Sequence record: PV730302.1
DNA from: a phage
Strand: one strand, 5' to 3'
Length of the DNA stretch: 64,000 nt
The stretch's first letter is position 1, and the number at the start of each line of letters is the position of its first letter. The notes under the pieces are model-generated. The model ran no database searches, was not told the DNA's origin, and saw nothing but the letters and a program-made list of their open reading frames with translations. This document shows, in pieces, positions 25,841-51,915 of the stretch. The position numbers and the translations under genes are program-made.

Positions 25841-26138
25841 TTTCGTCTCGCTCAAATTTGTGTTTACAATGGCGGCATTTGTAACGAAGATTACTAGTCT
25901 GCCAATGGACCAATTGAACCTGTTCTGTACCACACTCAGGACAGTTTGGTACATTCTTAGAAGCTTGTTCTCGTCGTGCGACCATAGCCATTACAGCATC
26001 CCAATTAACGGCATCACTATATTCATCACAGCCATGAATTTTACCAACCAATTCAACTTCAACATCCTCGGCTTTAATAAATTTCAATAAACCGGTATTG
26101 GTTGTTGAAGCAATATCTTCAGCTAAACGTTGTTTCAT
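25827..26138 (-). CDS. zinc-ribbon protein (103 aa)
   Basis: CPECG...C..C four-cysteine motif. Confidence 0.5.
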
Positions 26139-27145
26139 TTCAACAGCTCCAGAGCTTGTTCAAGACGGTCTAAACGATTGGTAGACTCTTCCCAAAGTTT
26201 CTTGGCAGCAGTATATTGCCCAGTCAGTTTTTTGTTAATAGCAAGGGCATCTTTATACGCTTTTTCTAAGGCAACGACTTCTGGTAACTTGGATTTAGTA
26301 ATTGGTGTAGGGGCCATGATAGGGTTGTTCAAGTCGTTAATCAAGTCTTCTAATGTAGCAGGCTCTTTATCAGTGTTCACAATTTCCTCACATTTTTCTT
26401 GGTAAATTTCAGCATCAGTTTTTGGAACAGGGCATTTGATTTCACGGACTGTTACTAAGACCTCGTATCCTTTCCAACCATAGAAATGTTTAACTTCTTG
26501 AGTCTCGTATTTCTCTACGGTATCCATCAGAGCTAAAGCTTGTTCGATAGTATTCAAGGTGTCGTAAGCAATATCTTGATACTTTACAACTTCCGCATCA
26601 TCTTTAGGTTTCCTATTAGGCGACCAAATAACAGAAATAATAGCTTTTCCTTTATAACTATTTGTTTTAATCATGCAATTAGCCATAGGGTGAATAGTAC
26701 GACAATCACCGGAAACTATAGTTTTAGAGGCCGCTTTGAGAATTAATGCAGAGTTAGCCTTGAATTCGCTAACCCAACGTTGCGGAAATAAACTACTAGG
26801 GTCCATACCTTTAATTTTGATATAACTTTTTATGGTATCACCAAACCATTTGTAGTTAACAACATGGCTGGAACCTGGATGTTTCTCTTTGCCAAACTCT
26901 GAAAGGATGTCCTTATTGACCAGTCGCGAAAGCAGTCGAGAACCTTTAAATGTTTTAATGATATCATGAATGCACAAACGGCCTGCAATCTTTTCGATTT
27001 CAGCTTTGAAACAGCGCGATAATGCATCATCAATTTGGTCGACCCATTTATTGATATTAGAAACTATTACCACATATGGGGTTAATGGAGGGGTGTTGGC
27101 AGTGATATACGTAGTAAAGGCATTAATGTATTCAGTACGAGTCAT
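26135..27145 (-). CDS. hypothetical protein (336 aa)
   Basis: ATG 27145 directly downstream of a TTTACA-18-TATAAT promoter. Confidence 0.6.
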   Translation of the reverse strand: MTRTEYINAFTTYITANTPPLTPYVVIVSNINKWVDQIDDALSRCFKAEIEKIAGRLCIHDIIKTFKGSRLLSRLVNKDILSEFGKEKHPGSSHVVNYKWFGDTIKSYIKIKGMDPSSLFPQRWVSEFKANSALILKAASKTIVSGDCRTIHPMANCMIKTNSYKGKAIISVIWSPNRKPKDDAEVVKYQDIAYDTLNTIEQALALMDTVEKYETQEVKHFYGWKGYEVLVTVREIKCPVPKTDAEIYQEKCEEIVNTDKEPATLEDLINDLNNPIMAPTPITKSKLPEVVALEKAYKDALAINKKLTGQYTAAKKLWEESTNRLDRLEQALELLK

Positions 27146-27201
27146 GATATTCTCCTCAAGTTGATAGAAAGATTATACTCCATCCATCCTTGGATGTAAA
27201 C
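27146..27201 (-). promoter_or_regulatory. early promoter (GTTTAC-18-TATAAT)
   Basis: Minus-strand GTTTACATCCAAGGATGGATGGAGTATAAT. Confidence 0.6.
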
Positions 27202-27202
27202 A

Positions 27203-28096
27203 TTATTTTAGAGCTAATACTGCCGCGCGGAGCTTGTCACGCTGGAGTTCCATGTTCTTGATGCGGATCAATACGTCTTGAATACTCTTTTTCTCATCTT
27301 CGATCTGACCATTTAAACGGTGGATTGATTCCTGGAGGTGGTCCTCATGATACTTCTCGATAGGTTTCATCGTAGGGTTAGTAACCACCAAAGAATTCTC
27401 GGGTTTAATTTTCCAATGATACGGTTCAGAATTGAATGGACTAGGCACGGCTGTGGTTTTGAATTTGTCATAGGCTGCATACTGGCCTACACTGTCACAT
27501 GATACTGAAGAGATACGACGTTCCATTTGTGGTTCCTTTTGTTGGGGTTGATAAGGGGCATAAGACAAAAGATATTCGCGAGTTAGTTTAATATTAAAAT
27601 AAACTGCATCAGCCCGCTCAAAACAATCAGCGTATTCATCGGTCGTAACCTTATATGATTCTACAGCCTTAATACGAGTCATTGCTTCTCTGAATAAGGT
27701 TTCAAATGCACCACGAAGGGCCTTATTGCCTTTTGAGGTGGGACGGAAACGAACTTGAATACCGTCAGGCAGAATATTAATGACTAGGTTACGAGCCGTA
27801 AAATTAATATTCTTGATATTGACAGGAACCGTAGAAATACGTCCTGCGGTAGCCAAGAGGTCTTTGATATTAGCTCGCAGTGTTGCACCAAATAAATGAG
27901 CAGGGCAACGGCAATAATCGTTCAAAGAACTAATATAAGTCCCTTTACGACCTACACCATAAGTATAATTACCATTACAAATATGGCCGAAGTCGGCCAG
28001 CCGATCGATAGCGATACGACGAGTCGTGTCATGGTCATAGATGGAATATTCTTTACGCGTTTTAATGTTCATATCAGAGTCCAAATAATTTTTCAT
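27203..28096 (-). CDS. hypothetical protein (297 aa)
   Basis: ORF. Confidence 0.6.
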   Translation of the reverse strand: MKNYLDSDMNIKTRKEYSIYDHDTTRRIAIDRLADFGHICNGNYTYGVGRKGTYISSLNDYCRCPAHLFGATLRANIKDLLATAGRISTVPVNIKNINFTARNLVINILPDGIQVRFRPTSKGNKALRGAFETLFREAMTRIKAVESYKVTTDEYADCFERADAVYFNIKLTREYLLSYAPYQPQQKEPQMERRISSVSCDSVGQYAAYDKFKTTAVPSPFNSEPYHWKIKPENSLVVTNPTMKPIEKYHEDHLQESIHRLNGQIEDEKKSIQDVLIRIKNMELQRDKLRAAVLALK

Positions 28097-28289
28097 AGAG
28101 TTTAGCGATAGGCCACAGAATTAGCATACATAACCAGGCAAAGCAAAATACTGGCCATACAAATGTAATGAATACTGCATCATAGCTTGATTCAATTTCA
28201 ACCGGGTTCCATGCACCGGACTTATGAACAAATAATGCAGTAATAAATCCTATCACAAGATATCCAATAATAAAACTGATAATTTCCAT
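28074..28289 (-). CDS. small membrane protein (71 aa)
   Basis: Two hydrophobic helices. Confidence 0.45.
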   Translation of the reverse strand: MEIISFIIGYLVIGFITALFVHKSGAWNPVEIESSYDAVFITFVWPVFCFAWLCMLILWPIAKLYEKLFGL

Positions 28290-28291
28290 AA

Positions 28292-29134
28292 TTAATCCTT
28301 AAGAAGATTTAGGATATCGATATATTTTTGACGTTCAGCCTTGGCTTTAGCATTCAGACCAGAGAGTCGGAAAATCTCATCATCTTGTTGTTGAATTGTA
28401 ACATTCAAGCAAGTAAGCAAATTACTAAAATATTCAATCTGGGCTTGATGCTTCTCATTGCTGCGCACTGGCACAGGTTCCGGTTTAGGAGCTTGTTCTG
28501 AATGCTCTTCAGCCAGGTCTTTAATTTTATAAAGTTTAATACGCTGACCCACTCCAGTTTCGGCATCACCAAAACTAAGAACACCGTGCTGTTCTAATTC
28601 AGACAAGGCCAATCGGAGATGGAACTTCCAGTTGTCATATTGACAACCACTGTAATGGGAAATGGTATACTCATTTTCATTTCCGGGGTGGTTAACAATA
28701 CTAAAGATAATCCAATCACCTGAGCCATTAGTCTTAAATGGCATTTGCTTATCAAGACCTTTTGCAAGGCGAGCGCCAAGAGCCAGTAGACGTCGTTGGT
28801 TGGCATGAAGGTCTTGAACAACTTCGTCAAATGACAACGCCGGGATTAAACGACCATAAAGGTCGTAGCCTTTGTTATAATTTTTAAGAATAATTTTGGC
28901 ATTAGCACGAGACAACATACCTGTTTTACGAAGAGTTTTCATGACCCGGTCTTCTAAGGTAAAAGACCTGGTCTTATCAAAGATTTTAGTGAAGTCATCT
29001 TTAACAGTACAAACATTGAACTTGTCCCACATCATATATAGAACCTTTTCAACCACTTCTTTAGAACTCGGAATACGACCAAATTTAATAACTTTTTTAA
29101 CTTCAGAACGAATTTGATTAATTGCCTGTGACAT
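28292..29134 (-). CDS. hypothetical protein (280 aa)
   Basis: ORF. Confidence 0.6.
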   Translation of the reverse strand: MSQAINQIRSEVKKVIKFGRIPSSKEVVEKVLYMMWDKFNVCTVKDDFTKIFDKTRSFTLEDRVMKTLRKTGMLSRANAKIILKNYNKGYDLYGRLIPALSFDEVVQDLHANQRRLLALGARLAKGLDKQMPFKTNGSGDWIIFSIVNHPGNENEYTISHYSGCQYDNWKFHLRLALSELEQHGVLSFGDAETGVGQRIKLYKIKDLAEEHSEQAPKPEPVPVRSNEKHQAQIEYFSNLLTCLNVTIQQQDDEIFRLSGLNAKAKAERQKYIDILNLLKD

Positions 29135-29197
29135 AATAATTTCCTCAGTAAGTAATTAAGAACCTAGAACCATTATACCATCCTTGGTATAAAGCGT
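29135..29197 (-). promoter_or_regulatory. promoter-like element with TATAAT -10 and MotA-box-like CGCTTTA 12 bp upstream (possible middle promoter)
   Basis: Minus-strand AAACGCTTTATACCAAGGATGGTATAATGG; no GTTTAC -35. Confidence 0.3.
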
Positions 29198-29722
29198 TTA
29201 TGCGAGAACCGTCTTTAAACGCTCTTCAAATTTCTGAAGCAGAGCTTGGCGTTCAGCTCGTTGTGATTTGTACTGCTCGATACGACCTGAAGTGAGGGCG
29301 TACTGTTCGTTTACTGATTCCCGCATAAATTCAGGAATCTCTTTACAAGCTTTGATTTCGTCAAACTTATCAATAACAGCTTGTTGTTCAGCAATCAGAT
29401 TATCGAAATAAGCGATATCAGATTTAACGTTTGCCAGGTCAGATTCGGTAGGCATTAAACGTTTGTTACGTTCAGCTTGATAAGCTTGATTGTTTTCACG
29501 ACTCCAGTGAAGAGTACGTTTTTTGTTAGTGTTTTTATAGAGCTCTACAATACCAACTGAATCGATGACTGCAATCCAGTTCCAACGGCTTTTGTAAATC
29601 TCTCCTCCAGATACGGTAATCTCATTACCACAAGCAACGTCGTTAAAGAACTTGCTTTGTTTTTCAGATTTGAAATTACCGTTGTTGAAATTAATCAGTG
29701 AAAAAATATCTTTAGCGTTCAT
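29198..29722 (-). CDS. hypothetical protein (174 aa)
   Basis: ATG 29722 downstream of an early promoter; SD GGAGG. Confidence 0.55.
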   Translation of the reverse strand: MNAKDIFSLINFNNGNFKSEKQSKFFNDVACGNEITVSGGEIYKSRWNWIAVIDSVGIVELYKNTNKKRTLHWSRENNQAYQAERNKRLMPTESDLANVKSDIAYFDNLIAEQQAVIDKFDEIKACKEIPEFMRESVNEQYALTSGRIEQYKSQRAERQALLQKFEERLKTVLA

Positions 29723-29777
29723 GATAACCTCCAGTAGTTGATAGGTCTATAGTATCATTTCTACTGGAGATGTAAAC
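29723..29777 (-). promoter_or_regulatory. early promoter with SD-complementary spacer arm
   Basis: GTTTAC-ATCTCCAGTAGAAATGA-TACTAT-AGACCTATCAACTACTGGAGG; CTCCAGTAG in the spacer pairs with CTACTGGAG in the leader. Confidence 0.6.
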
Positions 29778-29779
29778 AA

Positions 29780-30121
29780 CTAATAGAAACTTTTTTCACC
29801 TGCTTGTCCACTAAACCATGCGGATTGAGTGTTCTCTTTCCGTTGGTGTTCAATACGAATGCGATATTCATTCCTGATGGCGCAGAGTTCATCTCGGAAG
29901 TCGCCTGCCAACTTTACCTGCTTACGGTCTAGATTTATTAAGGCCTGGGTGTTAACGGCCAAGCGCAGTCTCCTGAAGTCTCCTCCACTACACGGATTTT
30001 TATAGAATTTCTCAGAAAACTTAGTACTACATTCATTAATATAGTCTTCAACAGACTGTTTCATAGCTTTGGAAAAAGTCTGACCTGCGTTATAAAGATT
30101 GTAAATAAATTGTTCGAACAT
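29780..30121 (-). CDS. hypothetical protein (113 aa)
   Basis: ORF. Confidence 0.5.
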   Translation of the reverse strand: MFEQFIYNLYNAGQTFSKAMKQSVEDYINECSTKFSEKFYKNPCSGGDFRRLRLAVNTQALINLDRKQVKLAGDFRDELCAIRNEYRIRIEHQRKENTQSAWFSGQAGEKSFY

Positions 30122-30131
30122 AATTTCACCT

Positions 30132-31112
30132 TTATTTCAGAAGTGTAACTTCAGCGATTTCGCTCCAGTCATTTTTATCGGTGGCAATGAAGTCCGCCAG
30201 ATAAAGAGCTGTACGTAATGATACGTTACGAAGACGAGATACATTAGCCTTCATCCAGGACAGTGCTTGATAAGTCTCGGCATCAGTCAGACCACGGTTT
30301 TGCATCATATCAGTGGACAGGATAACGTCTTCAACACGGACCATAATCTCTTCGTTAGAGTGAACTCCGAGGTCTAAGTAAACTGAACGAGATACTAAAG
30401 CCTGGAGGTGTGGAGCAAGTTTAGTTCCACGCTCTAATTCACGGTCAATATCAACGTTGGTGATGAACACGATGGTGCCTTCGTATTCGAATTCTTTATC
30501 GATATTTTTATCATCAAGGTAAGAACTTGAAGTGCTCCAGCACACCTTACGTTTTTCACCGGTATCCAATGCTGCTTTTAACAGGTTCAGGATATCCATA
30601 TCAGAGAATACATCAACATCATCAATAAGAAGAACACTATTAGGGCCGCGGTTATTCCAAAGCTGCTCGTAAAGACCGATTCCACTAATCTTTCCGTTGA
30701 TTGATTTATATTCGATAGTTTCATTTTCGTGGGCATTCTGTAATGCTTTATCTAAAGAATATGTTTTACCAATACCTGCGGCACCAGAGATGATAAGGGA
30801 ACGAATTTTACCATCGATGATTCCGTTGGTCATCATGTTCATTACTTTAAAACGTTTGTTGATGCGATGTTTCATTTCTTCAGCGGATTCAGTAACAACT
30901 GCAGGAGCTTCGGCACCTTCCATTTCAACGTCACATTTGAACACCCATACACCACGTTCAACACCATCAATCTGTACAAATACCTTACCATCACCGAGGT
31001 GAGCTTCAGATTCATGAATTTTATTAGGGAACCAGGTTTTACCTGAACTCATGAACGTACCAGAGATTTCATTACCGCGATAGATACCTTTGTTGATTTT
31101 GATAGTTAACAT
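30132..31112 (-). CDS. P-loop ATPase with about 110-aa N-terminal domain (AAA-like)
   Basis: Walker A SGAAGIGKT and Walker B VLLIDDVD; start at ATG 31112 with GGAG SD; track N-terminal extension rejected. Confidence 0.6.
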   Translation of the reverse strand: MLTIKINKGIYRGNEISGTFMSSGKTWFPNKIHESEAHLGDGKVFVQIDGVERGVWVFKCDVEMEGAEAPAVVTESAEEMKHRINKRFKVMNMMTNGIIDGKIRSLIISGAAGIGKTYSLDKALQNAHENETIEYKSINGKISGIGLYEQLWNNRGPNSVLLIDDVDVFSDMDILNLLKAALDTGEKRKVCWSTSSSYLDDKNIDKEFEYEGTIVFITNVDIDRELERGTKLAPHLQALVSRSVYLDLGVHSNEEIMVRVEDVILSTDMMQNRGLTDAETYQALSWMKANVSRLRNVSLRTALYLADFIATDKNDWSEIAEVTLLK

Positions 31113-31178
31113 TATATTCTCCATTTCACTCAGTAGATTTGATAGGTCCATAATAACATGCTCTACGAGGTTGTAAAC
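31113..31178 (-). promoter_or_regulatory. early promoter (GTTTAC-17-TATTAT)
   Basis: Minus-strand GTTTACAACCTCGTAGAGCATGTTATTATGGACCTATCAA. Confidence 0.55.
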
Positions 31179-31195
31179 ACTTTTTTGCACTAAAC

Positions 31196-31222
31196 CCAAA
31201 AAAGGAACCCGAAGGTTCCTAA
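31196..31222 (-). terminator. rho-independent terminator
   Basis: GGAACC-TTCG-GGTTCC followed by T6 on the minus strand. Confidence 0.55.
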
Positions 31223-31407
31223 ATCGCATTCCAATAATTATGGAAGCGGATATTATTAATGGCCCACTCAACAAATCGTCTTATCTGTTTAGGCGTTGGT
31301 TTACATACGTACTTGATATTGCCTCGGCGTCCAGTTTCTTTACATACTGCTTCAAGATACCATCGGCGGGTTTTATGAGGCCTTCCATATGATAAAAAGA
31401 CCTTCAT
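31219..31407 (-). CDS. hypothetical basic protein (start uncertain)
   Basis: ORF ending in the terminator hairpin; first ATG at 31407; track start is TTG. Confidence 0.35.
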   Translation of the reverse strand: MKVFLSYGRPHKTRRWYLEAVCKETGRRGNIKYVCKPTPKQIRRFVEWAINNIRFHNYWNAI

Positions 31408-31414
31408 TTCTTCG

Positions 31415-32425
31415 TTATCGATAATAAGAGTTGTGGTTGTCAAGGTATACCTCTTCGACGAACTTGTCCCGGAACTTCATGTCCACCTTATCAGGCATAC
31501 CGTTCTTGGCTGCCCAGATGGCATTGGTTTCGACTTCATCTACAATAGCTTCAAGTTCAGCCTGCACATCTTTAAAAGCATGTAATCCTTGTTTGATTTC
31601 AAGAATGAATGGAGCGGTACGTAAAGGGTATTTGAGATCGCCAGTTTGATAGATTTCCTTCAACTGGTATCCAGCACGATAAGCATGACTCAGCGCTTTC
31701 CAATCGATACCTTCATTGGCTTCAGCCTTACGAGCACGTTCACCATATTCAGCATCAAGCTTATTCAGAGATTGCTTGAGCTCGATTAAAGACAAAGTGG
31801 TTTGGTACTTACGTCCGAGAACAGTATAGAACGTTTGAGGACCTGTTTTCTCATGATTATGGAATACCCATTCACAGAACTCGTTTTCAGGGAGTCGATG
31901 TTTAATATCTTCTACCTTAGTACGACGTTGTTTAGTCGAACCATCTTCTTGGTAATCAATCCACTGTTCAGGAATCTGGTTGACTATTGCCAATACACCA
32001 CGCAGAGCAGCCAGACGAGAACCTTTAACACCATATTTAGAAGCTTGCTTACGGACGTACCCTAAATAGGCTTTCATGTTGGTTGTATAGAACCGAGAAC
32101 GATTGTCTTGGATAAATTTCCATACATCAGGTAAATCAGATTTAACCACCAGTTCAGGTGGAGTGTGGAGCATATCCAGAGCAACGGTTTCGCCTTCAGC
32201 CGCCAGTTTAAAGAAATATTTCAGGCTATAAAGCTCGTGGTCAACATCATCTTTAGTGTTTTTGGAAGCAGTGTTATTCGTATTCAGGTTGGTATGGTTC
32301 ATAGCCGTACCTAACAGAATATCACGCGGATGTGGAACAAAGATTTCTTTAAAATCAACATCAGATTCTGGAGTACTTGTTCCATAAAGGTGGCTACCGA
32401 AGTAGCCTTTCATAACTGTTCTCAT
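31415..32425 (-). CDS. Pol-beta-superfamily nucleotidyltransferase-like protein with long helical C-terminal domain
   Basis: GSHLYGTSTPESDVDF matches the GS-x(9-13)-DxD minimal-NTase motif; 336 aa; ATG overlaps the upstream stop (ATGA); SD GAGGA. Confidence 0.55.
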   Translation of the reverse strand: MRTVMKGYFGSHLYGTSTPESDVDFKEIFVPHPRDILLGTAMNHTNLNTNNTASKNTKDDVDHELYSLKYFFKLAAEGETVALDMLHTPPELVVKSDLPDVWKFIQDNRSRFYTTNMKAYLGYVRKQASKYGVKGSRLAALRGVLAIVNQIPEQWIDYQEDGSTKQRRTKVEDIKHRLPENEFCEWVFHNHEKTGPQTFYTVLGRKYQTTLSLIELKQSLNKLDAEYGERARKAEANEGIDWKALSHAYRAGYQLKEIYQTGDLKYPLRTAPFILEIKQGLHAFKDVQAELEAIVDEVETNAIWAAKNGMPDKVDMKFRDKFVEEVYLDNHNSYYR

Positions 32426-32880
32426 TCTTTGTCCTCGAAGTGGATTACCGGACAGACCTTAGATTTACGAGCTTTAATGTATTGAATAACGATATTTTCT
32501 TTAGTTTCTCGGCCTTCACGCTCAGCTTGAATACGTTGCCATTCCTTTTCTTCTCTACGGGCATCATACCATGCGTGTAAATTCATCGCACCGAATGCCA
32601 AACCAATGGATAGCGCAATAATAAGAGCTATTGCAACCAATCCTAAAACAAACCCTAGACTCAACAGAACAGGGGTACTTAATACAAAGAAATGCTCTAA
32701 TACACCAACACCTGCAACAGTTAATCCAAAAAGCGTACTACCTGCAACAACAGCACAAGCAAAACAAGCCCAAACCATTTTCCAGAAGTAAGCACATAAA
32801 GAGTGCGGTCGAGAATGACTGTCATAAAAACGGTCATGAAGTTTAGCGTGCCAAGAGTTTGCATTGATAATCATAATCAT
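32422..32880 (-). CDS. membrane protein (152 aa)
   Basis: Several hydrophobic helices. Confidence 0.5.
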   Translation of the reverse strand: MIMIINANSWHAKLHDRFYDSHSRPHSLCAYFWKMVWACFACAVVAGSTLFGLTVAGVGVLEHFFVLSTPVLLSLGFVLGLVAIALIIALSIGLAFGAMNLHAWYDARREEKEWQRIQAEREGRETKENIVIQYIKARKSKVCPVIHFEDKE

Positions 32881-51758: not shown

Positions 51759-51833
51759 TGGTATCCCGCCCTGGGATCGAACCAGGACCGCAAACTTAGA
51801 AGGATCGTATGCTATCCATTACACCAGCGGGAC
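51759..51833 (-). tRNA. tRNA-Arg (anticodon TCT), CCA encoded
   Basis: Manual cloverleaf: acceptor GTCCCGC/GCGGGAT, D-arm GTGT-AATGGATA-GCAT, anticodon loop CTTCTAA, T-arm CCTGG-TTCGATC-CCAGG. Confidence 0.8.
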
Positions 51834-51838
51834 ATAGT

Positions 51839-51915
51839 TGGTGACCCGGACCAGATTTGAACTGGTAACCTTTCCCTTATGAGGGGACTGCTTCTAACCA
51901 TTGAGCTACAGGGCC
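51839..51915 (-). tRNA. tRNA with anticodon CAT (Ile2/Met type), CCA encoded
   Basis: Manual cloverleaf: acceptor GGCCCTG/CCGGGTC (one mismatch), anticodon loop CTCATAA, T-arm ACCAG-TTCAAAT-CTGGT; three stem mismatches in total. Confidence 0.65.

Follow-up and report, generated by a model that had tools for sequence, protein, structure and literature searches.

Gene content of the region

The window, that is, the whole 64,000-nucleotide stretch of DNA that was analysed (PV730302.1), derives from a JS98-like Dhakavirus, a T4-like phage, and shows 91-94% identity to Dhakavirus genomes. In the region described here, the minus strand carries three open reading frames, which encode a nucleotidyltransferase, a protein of 74 residues and an ATPase (Table 1). 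The first and the last are separate accessory genes of the T4-like (Dhakavirus) phage that have been catalogued before. They are known and ordinary, and the window contributes no new gene.

The nucleotidyltransferase is 82% identical to T4 NrdC.11 (NP_049709, "nucleotidyltransferase") over all 336 residues without a gap. The ATPase is 77% identical to T4 NrdC.10 (NP_049708, hypothetical protein), has the same length and motifs, and differs from it in nothing of substance. The position of nrdC.11 between the mobD/rI side and nrdC.10 is common to both phages. However, the gene upstream of nrdC.11 encodes a 152-residue membrane protein with a 4-nt start overlap here and the homing endonuclease MobD in T4. 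Likewise, the 114-bp gap between nrdC.11 and nrdC.10 of T4 contains no annotated gene, whereas here a DUF7279 gene takes its place, so that the ATPase indeed lies two genes downstream of the nucleotidyltransferase, as the sequence-only reading had it.

Table 1. Position of genes, motifs and candidate regulatory sites in the window.
Feature	Position	Strand	Basis
nrdC.11 ortholog, 336-aa RlaP-family (PF10127) Pol-beta-type nucleotidyltransferase	31415..32425	-	PF10127, phrog_388, T4 identity
Catalytic core G10-S11 ... D22-x-D24 (GSHLYGTSTPESDVD)	32354..32398	-	conservation in 143 sequences
Candidate third catalytic carboxylates D60, D62 (32240-32248), D84 (32174-32176)	32174..32248	-	conservation in alignment A3
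Small gene between the two, 74 aa, DUF7279, basic	31219..31443	-	PF23945 E 1.6e-10; phrog_8921 E 2.4e-38
Terminator-like hairpin AGGAACC-TTCG-GGTTCCT, then T run	31203..31220	-	consensus match only
Sigma-70-type promoter-like site, TTTACA, 16 nt, TG-extended TATTAT	31150..31177	-	consensus match only
nrdC.10 ortholog, 326-aa AAA+ ATPase with N-terminal beta domain	30132..31112	-	T4 identity, motifs
N-terminal beta domain of the ATPase, residues 1-64, five strands	30921..31112	-	predicted structure
AAA+ catalytic motifs of the ATPase, as a group	30213..30788	-	invariance in 42 homologs
Walker A SGAAGIGKT	30762-30788	-	
Walker B VLLIDDVD	30612-30635	-	
Sensor 1 N219	30456-30458	-	
SRS motif, R242 likely arginine finger	30384-30392	-	role inferred from position
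SLR motif, R300 likely sensor 2	30213-30221	-	role inferred from position

The ATG of the nucleotidyltransferase gene is preceded by a GAGGA Shine-Dalgarno sequence. The 74-residue gene starts with TTG, with an alternative ATG at 31407, and its phrog_8921 match spans the full length. The ATPase lies in a 380-residue open reading frame that opens with TTG; because the match to the phrog_1250 profile (E 3.5e-163) begins at Met55, the protein was taken to start at this residue, which has a GGAG 7 nt upstream. The terminator-like hairpin overlaps the stop codon of the 74-residue gene (31219-31221), and the promoter-like site, with 10 of 12 consensus positions the best match in the region, precedes the start of the ATPase gene by 38 nt. 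Terminator-like hairpins show no enrichment in this region, with one found against 2.6 expected; for promoter-like sites the numbers are 13 found and 11.2 expected. A common C-terminal tail in four downstream open reading frames was considered and dropped, as pairwise comparison gave no significant similarity.

The nucleotidyltransferase is a member of the RlaP family

The product of the first gene had been proposed to belong to the Pol-beta nucleotidyltransferase superfamily, and its matches to PF10127 (E 1.2e-10, 42 bits, above the Pfam gathering cutoff of 23) and to phrog_388, "nucleotidyltransferase" (E 1.9e-131), are far beyond chance and bear this out. PF10127 is RlaP, the RNA-ligase-associated Pol-beta nucleotidyltransferase, which owes its name to a gene neighbourhood with RNA ligase or end-healing genes. 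The family is large; a threshold of E 1e-3 gives 3906 cluster representatives. It is the only family above threshold for the phage protein, and the same holds for 142 of 143 diverse relatives.

The proposed GS-DxD core (GSHLYGTSTPESDVD) is present, although the protein does not start with it, as the motif occupies residues 10-24. G10-S11, ten intervening residues and D22-V-D24 conform to the Pol-beta signature G[GS]-x(9-13)-DxD. In alignment A3 (143 sequences, 34-83% identity) the residues G10, S21, D22 and D24 never vary, and the conservation of S11, D60, D62 and D84 is 90% or higher. The description of the enzyme as minimal does not apply, as the protein has 336 residues and a large C-terminal domain that is conserved across the family. 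Of the 249 positions of the PF10127 model only 25-142 are aligned, and the protein therefore differs from canonical RlaP in its C-terminal half.

In an AlphaFold model, calculated from an alignment of 25 sequences with 67-99% identity, the C-terminal part is mostly helical apart from a beta-rich insert that spans roughly residues 154-208. The catalytic domain had pLDDT values under 50 for residues 1-28 and 43-67. A Foldseek search of the PDB with this low-confidence model returned only noise (best E 0.12), and sequence and profile searches of the PDB with the single protein and with alignments A2 and A3 found no solved relative. Because the model failed in the catalytic domain, the support for a Pol-beta fold in this protein comes from the sequence profiles.

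Comparison with bacterial RlaP and with other nucleotidyltransferases

The activity of bacterial RlaP is taken from the literature. In a preprint of December 2025, two Pseudomonas enzymes only, PfRlaP and PaRlaP, were shown to extend the 3'-OH ends of RNA by one or two NMPs in vitro, with a preference for mimics of tRNA halves and with neither DNA nor protein as substrate (bioRxiv 10.64898/2025.12.29.696909). The enzymes discriminated little between NTPs, and full-length tRNA and rRNA-sized species were labelled as well. The same study placed T4 NrdC.11 in the Pfam family of bacterial RlaP by sequence, although in a different sequence cluster (cluster 5) from that of the Pseudomonas enzymes (cluster 1a). 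In the crystal structure of PfRlaP, an N-terminal nucleotidyltransferase domain is followed by a C-terminal helical domain, and a terminal helix packs back onto the first domain. The phage enzyme shares with the bacterial RlaP of RtcB operons the Pfam family, the GS, DxD and Asp residues, and probably the order of an N-terminal nucleotidyltransferase domain and a larger C-terminal domain. It differs in that it aligns to the Pfam model in its N-terminal half only and in the beta-rich insert of its model.

Other families of the superfamily were considered and rejected. A CD-NTase or cGAS-like signalling enzyme was discarded because the PADLOC search (E up to 1) gave no matching family, hence no CD-NTase model, and Pfam gave no family of this kind. 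Searches of NCBIfam and PADLOC gave nothing significant for either the nucleotidyltransferase or the ATPase. An MNT/MntA antitoxin was discarded on the basis of a score of 13.1 bits against a cutoff of 60, of the length of 336 residues instead of about 100-140, and of the neighbouring genes, which encode the membrane protein and the DUF7279 protein and not a HEPN protein. A CCA-adding enzyme or poly(A) polymerase was discarded as the PolyA_pol head domain was not matched in Pfam at E up to 1.

The nucleotidyltransferase might nevertheless nucleotidylylate a protein or a small molecule instead of RNA, for example a HEPN-type toxin of the host, which it would neutralise in the manner of MntA antitoxins, or a defence signal, which it would inactivate. 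MNT-type enzymes have the GS...DxD core as well, NTP_transf_2 (E 0.057) and MntA (E 0.065) are weakly matched, and the phage accessory genes of the region are plausible counter-defence genes. However, the MntA match covers only the motif, a HEPN partner is not encoded next to the gene, PF10127 stands as the sole family above threshold for the protein and for 142 of 143 relatives, and bacterial RlaP left protein and DNA unlabelled while it labelled RNA. In addition, RNA ligases adjoin distant relatives (see below), and a protein or small-molecule substrate is considered unlikely.

RNA-repair genes adjoin distant NrdC.11-type genes

RNA ligase or end-healing genes were found near distant members of the phage subfamily. 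In 20 of 32 distant NrdC.11-type loci, a gene for RtcB (11 loci), a T4 Rnl1-type ligase (nine) or an HD plus P-loop kinase (eight) lies within 8 kb, compared with none of 60 control phage loci. These neighbourhoods comprise at least three gene arrangements; the counts draw on related contigs, and once these are clustered at 70% identity, the signal is carried by only 6 of the 15 clusters. In jumbo phages, the distribution of RlaP has been found to mirror that of RNA ligase (PMC7824862).

In the window and in all 46 close nucleotidyltransferase loci, no RNA ligase or Pnkp gene was found nearby; the Tevenvirinae gene differs from the RlaP genes of RtcB operons in not being adjacent to a ligase. 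The close relative IME08 encodes pseT and rnlA, in a region about 87-91 kb from nrdC.11. In the Tevenvirinae the partner would be a 5'-phosphate ligase (Rnl1), which, unlike RtcB, could take a 3'-OH product directly.

A role at RNA 3' ends outside anticodon-loop repair was also weighed, namely the rebuilding of tRNA 3'-CCA ends or the tailing of transcripts with an effect on their stability. The phage has tRNA genes of its own, and the low NTP specificity and broad RNA labelling of bacterial RlaP would suit such a role. On the other hand, bacterial RlaP adds no more than one or two nucleotides and prefers mimics of cleaved tRNA, families of CCA-adding enzymes and poly(A) polymerases are not matched at E up to 1, and ligase and end-healing neighbours fit the repair of breaks better than tailing. 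CCA rebuilding or tailing is thus judged improbable.

The sequence-only reading had left the choice between nucleotide signalling and RNA repair open and held that function could not be inferred from sequence. The latter was too pessimistic, as the family has a named, predicted and partly tested activity. Of the two options, RNA repair is favoured by the RlaP family assignment and by the RNA ligase genes near distant relatives, whereas a signalling pair is not supported, PADLOC having yielded no match.

The NrdC.10 ortholog is an AAA+ ATPase with an N-terminal beta domain

The second protein was correctly recognised as a P-loop ATPase, with SGAAGIGKT (residues 109-117) and VLLIDDVD (residues 160-167), and can be specified as an AAA+ protein. 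It has Walker A and B motifs, sensor 1, a likely arginine finger, a likely sensor 2, an alpha-beta-alpha core and a helical lid. In 42 homologs with identities down to 27%, no substitution occurs at G113, G115, K116, D164, D165, D167, N219, R242 or R300. By its motifs the protein is a catalytically intact AAA+ ATPase, probably an oligomeric, ATP-driven remodeller. An AAA ATPase motif in T4 NrdC.10 was already noted in 2006 (PMC1524935).

The extra N-terminal domain exists but is shorter than the 110 residues ascribed to it, and consists of a beta domain of about 64 residues plus a linker, as helix 77-99 is already part of the AAA+ module in the predicted structure. Its strands comprise residues 2-11, 14-27, 42-48, 51-57 and 62-64, with block means of pLDDT of 80-88 over residues 1-60. 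The domain is recognisable in many distant homologs, and a Pfam search with it alone at E up to 10 gave no match.

The full-length ATPase matched only the generic Pfam families AAA_16, AAA_22 and AAA, each below its cutoff, and no dedicated family. No family of MoxR-type or NtrC-type AAA+ proteins (NorQ, CbbQ, sigma-54 activators) or of initiators and clamp loaders (DnaA, ORC/Cdc6, RFC, T4 gp44) was matched above threshold, and the N-terminal domain is likewise without a Pfam match. PDB searches returned only marginal matches to Cdc6 (E 0.06). A clamp-loader AAA+ protein (T4 gp44, RFC) was rejected since clamp-loader subunits are not the closest relatives in sequence and structure; clamp-loader and sliding-clamp annotations are already present on the records that match the window, under the match. 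The Walker B "IDD" and the "SRS/SRC" and "NVSLR" motifs presumably recall those of DnaA and clamp loaders, a likeness that was not used as evidence.

The two genes are distributed independently

The nucleotidyltransferase and the ATPase had been regarded as a pair, and they could work as one module, for nucleotide signalling or as an ATP-driven machine for RNA repair, with the ATPase delivering or remodelling the substrate. The ATPase gene lies 0-2.3 kb downstream on the same strand in 37 of 78 nucleotidyltransferase loci, and the same order occurs in most ATPase loci of enterobacterial and Acinetobacter T4-like phages. Yet 41 of the 78 loci have no ATPase gene. None of the 32 distant nucleotidyltransferase loci has it within 8 kb, and none of the 58 distant ATPase loci examined has a nucleotidyltransferase gene in its flanks, up to 6-8 kb. 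Relatives with a 97-98% identical nucleotidyltransferase have the 1.7-kb segment that holds nrdC.10 replaced. The distance between the genes varies between -58 and 2272 bp, with unrelated small open reading frames in the interval, and in this phage the small gene, the terminator-like hairpin and the promoter-like site separate the two. For a signalling module in particular, the failure of the nucleotidyltransferase to match any PADLOC model is a further counterargument. A joint module is therefore regarded as very improbable.

The proximity of nrdC.10 to nrdC.11 reflects shared gene order and ancestry in the Tevenvirinae and not functional coupling, and the adjacent ATPase is not part of the RNA-repair system. 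nrdC.10 is a present-or-absent cassette that appears to have its own promoter. Among 60 distant ATPase loci, no real neighbour was common to more than 11, and the recurrent neighbour "families" proved to be antisense shadow open reading frames inside the ATPase gene itself.

NrdC.10-type proteins occur in enterobacterial T4-like phages and as far afield as large phage contigs from the environment. It is conceivable, though we give it little credence, that they are an undescribed, essentially phage-restricted AAA+ family that in T-even phages may have been recruited to work with NrdC.11, for instance in unfolding or presenting damaged tRNA, or that may have another role in host takeover or counter-defence. 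The independent distribution disfavours an obligatory partnership with NrdC.11 and is compatible with a lineage-specific cooperation; any role of the ATPase is putative.

Discussion

RNA repair was first found in phage T4, where Pnkp and Rnl1 reverse the cleavage of tRNA by the host nuclease PrrC. Nucleases of the RloC type defeat this repair by also removing a nucleotide. The reading that we favour, and hold to be reasonably probable, is that the nrdC.11 ortholog is an RlaP-family enzyme that acts on RNA 3' ends in RNA repair and that the nrdC.10 ortholog is a separate AAA+ ATPase. The GS/DxD metal site of the nrdC.11 ortholog would add one or two nucleotides, independent of a template, to the 3'-OH of a broken RNA. 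The likely target would be the 5' half of a tRNA after both cleavage and trimming by an anticodon nuclease of the host, for example RloC. The phage has end-healing and sealing enzymes of its own, Pnkp (pseT) and RNA ligase 1 (rnlA), encoded elsewhere in the genome, which could afterwards reseal a full-length tRNA. We infer this activity and this target for the phage enzyme. T4 tolerates the deletion of the nrdC.11-mobD.3 segment (PMC9825161).

With an RlaP enzyme, T4-like phages would possess the missing counter-move to RloC-type nucleases. This has been put forward before (Burroughs and Aravind, as represented in citing papers; Carruthers et al. 2025). What is added here is modest: the phage NrdC.11 subfamily itself adjoins genes for RtcB, Rnl1-type ligases and HD-kinases in distant phages, the nearby AAA+ ATPase is set apart from the RNA-repair system, and NrdC.10 is placed in a widespread phage AAA+ family that has so far been without description.

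Identity and genomic context of the two genes

The window comes from a T4-like phage. Around the two genes, a 5-kb region is 91-94% identical to Dhakavirus genomes of the JS98/IME08 group; the remainder of the window also matches those genomes, and annotations in the matching records range from DNA polymerase, the sliding clamp and the clamp loader to baseplate genes. The nucleotidyltransferase gene is called nrdC.11 and the ATPase gene nrdC.10 in T4 and in IME08, an annotated relative. Over the whole length, the window proteins share 82% (nucleotidyltransferase) and 77% (ATPase) identity with their T4 counterparts; between the ATPase and JS98 NrdC.10 the figure is 99%. Both genes are orthologs of the long-catalogued, already known nrdC.11 and nrdC.10. 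The sequence-only reading had described their open reading frames and motifs correctly in every factual detail; only the size of the ATPase's extra N-terminal domain needed adjusting. Because the profile match of the ATPase begins at Met55 of a 380-aa ORF, a 326-aa protein was assigned.

Many GenBank and UniRef entries call NrdC.10 and NrdC.11 homologs "thioredoxin", a name apparently inherited from the gene label nrdC.x; neither the NrdC.10-type nor the NrdC.11-type protein of the window matched a thioredoxin family. Other labels on homolog records are "HNH homing endonuclease" (one record), "ArsR regulator" and "XRE-type DNA-binding protein". The gene preceding nrdC.11, for a predicted membrane protein, overlaps the nrdC.11 start by 4 nt (ATGA); in T4 this site is occupied by mobD, a homing endonuclease gene. 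Four successive ORFs downstream, with nrdC.4, nrdC.6 and nrdC.8 orthologs among them, each have a charged, probably helical C-terminal tail of ~30 residues, and these tails end alike, in an L-x-L-L-K-like sequence; no significant pairwise similarity among the four was seen with BLASTP.

Features of the nrdC.10-nrdC.11 region and other features of the window
Feature	Position	Strand	Details
Four successive ORFs	26135-29722	-	336, 297, 280 and 174 aa
Segment absent from L104, L106 and L131 (three homologous loci)	29744-31414		holds nrdC.10 and the DUF7203 gene
DUF7203 gene	29780-30121		
ATPase (nrdC.10)	30132-31112	-	326 aa; SGAAGIGKT residues 109-117, VLLIDDVD residues 160-167
ATPase N-terminal domain	residues 1-64		five-stranded beta (AlphaFold)
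ATPase linker	between beta domain and AAA+ core		poorly ordered (AlphaFold)
ATPase AAA+ core with helical lid	residues 77-324		AlphaFold
Hairpin and promoter-like site	31150-31220	-	consensus matches only
Small gene after nucleotidyltransferase	31219-31443	-	74 aa; DUF7279, phrog_8921
Nucleotidyltransferase (nrdC.11)	31415-32425	-	336 aa; GSHLYGTSTPESDVD = residues 10-24; ribosome-binding site GAGGA
Predicted membrane protein	32422-32880	-	152 aa; phrog_944, weak oleosin-like hydrophobic match
tRNA-Arg (TCT) and tRNA-Met (CAT)	51759-51915	-	adjacent genes; relevant to tRNA-damage theme

The nucleotidyltransferase is a member of the RlaP family

The nucleotidyltransferase scored 42 bits with PF10127 (RlaP, "RNA repair pathway DNA polymerase beta family"; gathering score 23) and matched phrog_388 ("nucleotidyltransferase") with an E value of 1.9e-131. 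When 1.84 billion cluster representatives were searched with a profile, 3906 relatives were found at E values up to 1e-3; 143 of them (34-83% identity to the window protein) were aligned, and all but one of these matched PF10127 independently (142/143). Residues G10, Y14, S21, D22, D24, Y131, H247, R250 and P267 are invariant in the alignment and S11, D60, D62 and D84 are at least 90% conserved, a pattern that would be expected of an active Pol-beta-type enzyme. No match was obtained with CD-NTase, MntA antitoxin, CCA-adding enzyme or poly(A) polymerase profiles, and no related solved structure was detectable by sequence. The AlphaFold model, built on a shallow alignment, has pLDDT values below 50 at residues 1-28 and 43-67, and a fold search with it gave no meaningful match. 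The Pfam alignment does not extend past the first half of the PF10127 model, and the C-terminal part has a predicted beta-rich insert at approximately residues 154-208; the phage NrdC.11 subfamily thus differs from canonical RlaP outside the catalytic domain.

The ATPase is an uncharacterised AAA+ protein

The AlphaFold model of the ATPase is confident (mean pLDDT 88.8) and assigns ~64 residues to the extra N-terminal domain, which had earlier been put at 110. This domain has no Pfam match. No Pfam family matched the ATPase above threshold, and the generic AAA_16 model is the only Pfam contact for 40 of 42 family members. In all 42 homologs, down to 27% identity, Walker A residues G113, G115 and K116, Walker B residues D164, D165 and D167, and N219, R242 (SR[SC] motif) and R300 are invariant, which makes it very likely that the NrdC.10 ortholog is an active ATPase. 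T4-like phages of enterobacteria, Acinetobacter, Aeromonas and Vibrio carry homologs, as do many large environmental phage contigs. Matches in "genome" bins are mostly metagenome-assembled contigs, probably phage DNA.

The two genes do not form an obligatory pair

When loci were centred on the ATPase, only enterobacterial and Acinetobacter T4-like phages had the nucleotidyltransferase upstream in the same orientation; it was found within the flanks of none of the 58 more distant loci examined, and the distant loci share no conserved neighbour gene. Of 78 viral NrdC.11-type loci, 37 have the ATPase downstream; it is missing from all 32 distant and 9 of the close loci. In L104, L106 and L131, the nucleotidyltransferase is 97-98% identical to that of the window and both flanks are collinear, but 0.7-1.1 kb of unrelated DNA replaces the segment containing nrdC.10, which therefore behaves as a present-or-absent cassette. 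The spacing between the two genes varies between -58 and 2272 bp. In the window, the 74-aa gene has a UUCG-tetraloop hairpin plus T run overlapping its stop codon, and 38 nt before the nrdC.10 start lies a promoter-like site (GTTTACA ... TG-extended TATTAT); these two consensus matches suggest that the ATPase has a transcription unit of its own. Because both sets of loci, the close relatives, and the spacing and signals agree, the two genes are not an obligatory pair. The proposed signalling pair thus found no support, given the independent distribution and the lack of a CD-NTase profile match, and the ATPase is an independently distributed gene.

RNA-repair genes lie near many distant NrdC.11-type loci

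Burroughs and Aravind reportedly coined the name RlaP from the association with RNA ligase genes, and are said to have predicted that the protein puts back nucleotides missing from broken RNA ends before ligation. In jumbo phages, the distribution of RlaP mirrors that of RNA ligase (Iyer et al. 2021, PMC7824862). In a December 2025 preprint, Carruthers, Fatma and Huang studied two Pseudomonas RlaP enzymes, which add 1 or 2 NMPs to an RNA 3'-OH, favour the 5' half when given a mimic of cleaved tRNA, and partly restore aminoacylation of a tRNA lacking one anticodon-loop nucleotide (bioRxiv 10.64898/2025.12.29.696909). The nucleotidyltransferase is a member of a named family whose predicted role has been published and has recently gained in vitro support; nucleotide addition to RNA 3' ends in the course of tRNA repair is its best-supported mechanism, one that we consider probable. 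Nucleotidylylation of a protein or small molecule is a lesser alternative; DNA and protein were not substrates of the Pseudomonas enzymes (same preprint). Some other RNA-end function is likewise a lesser alternative. The preprint authors list T4 NrdC.11 as a family member of unknown function and propose RlaP as an antidote to RloC-like nucleases, which cut a tRNA and then excise a nucleotide. The nrdC.11-mobD.3 segment can be deleted from T4 (PMC9825161), as expected for an accessory counter-defence gene.

Neighbours within 8 kb were counted for the 78 loci, with 60 phage loci originally collected for the ATPase as controls. Among the 32 distant loci (37-48% identity), RtcB (PF01139, E 6.8e-122) was present at 11, a T4 Rnl1-type RNA ligase (PF09511, E 1.4e-18) at 9 and a fused HD phosphohydrolase and P-loop kinase (PF01966 plus PF13671) at 8. 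At least one of the three was found at 20/32 distant loci versus 0/60 controls; the distant loci are partly redundant, forming 15 clusters at 70% identity; 6 of these show the association, which takes three or more gene arrangements. None of the three was found at the 46 close (Tevenvirinae) loci or in the window; pseT (polynucleotide kinase/phosphatase) and rnlA (RNA ligase 1) are encoded elsewhere in the genome of the close relative IME08. As a 5'-phosphate ligase, Rnl1 would take the 3'-OH product of RlaP directly.

The order nucleotidyltransferase, ATP-dependent ligase (PF01068), RtcB was seen in eleven distant phage loci, nine of them distinct at 90% nucleotidyltransferase identity (locus handles given: L155, L164-L170, L172-L174 and L179). 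A second group (L156-L158 and L160-L163) has the order HD-kinase, Rnl1-type ligase, nucleotidyltransferase. Both groups look like compact phage RNA-repair cassettes. It is these repair-gene neighbours of the distant NrdC.11-type loci that provide new support for the link of the family to RNA repair.
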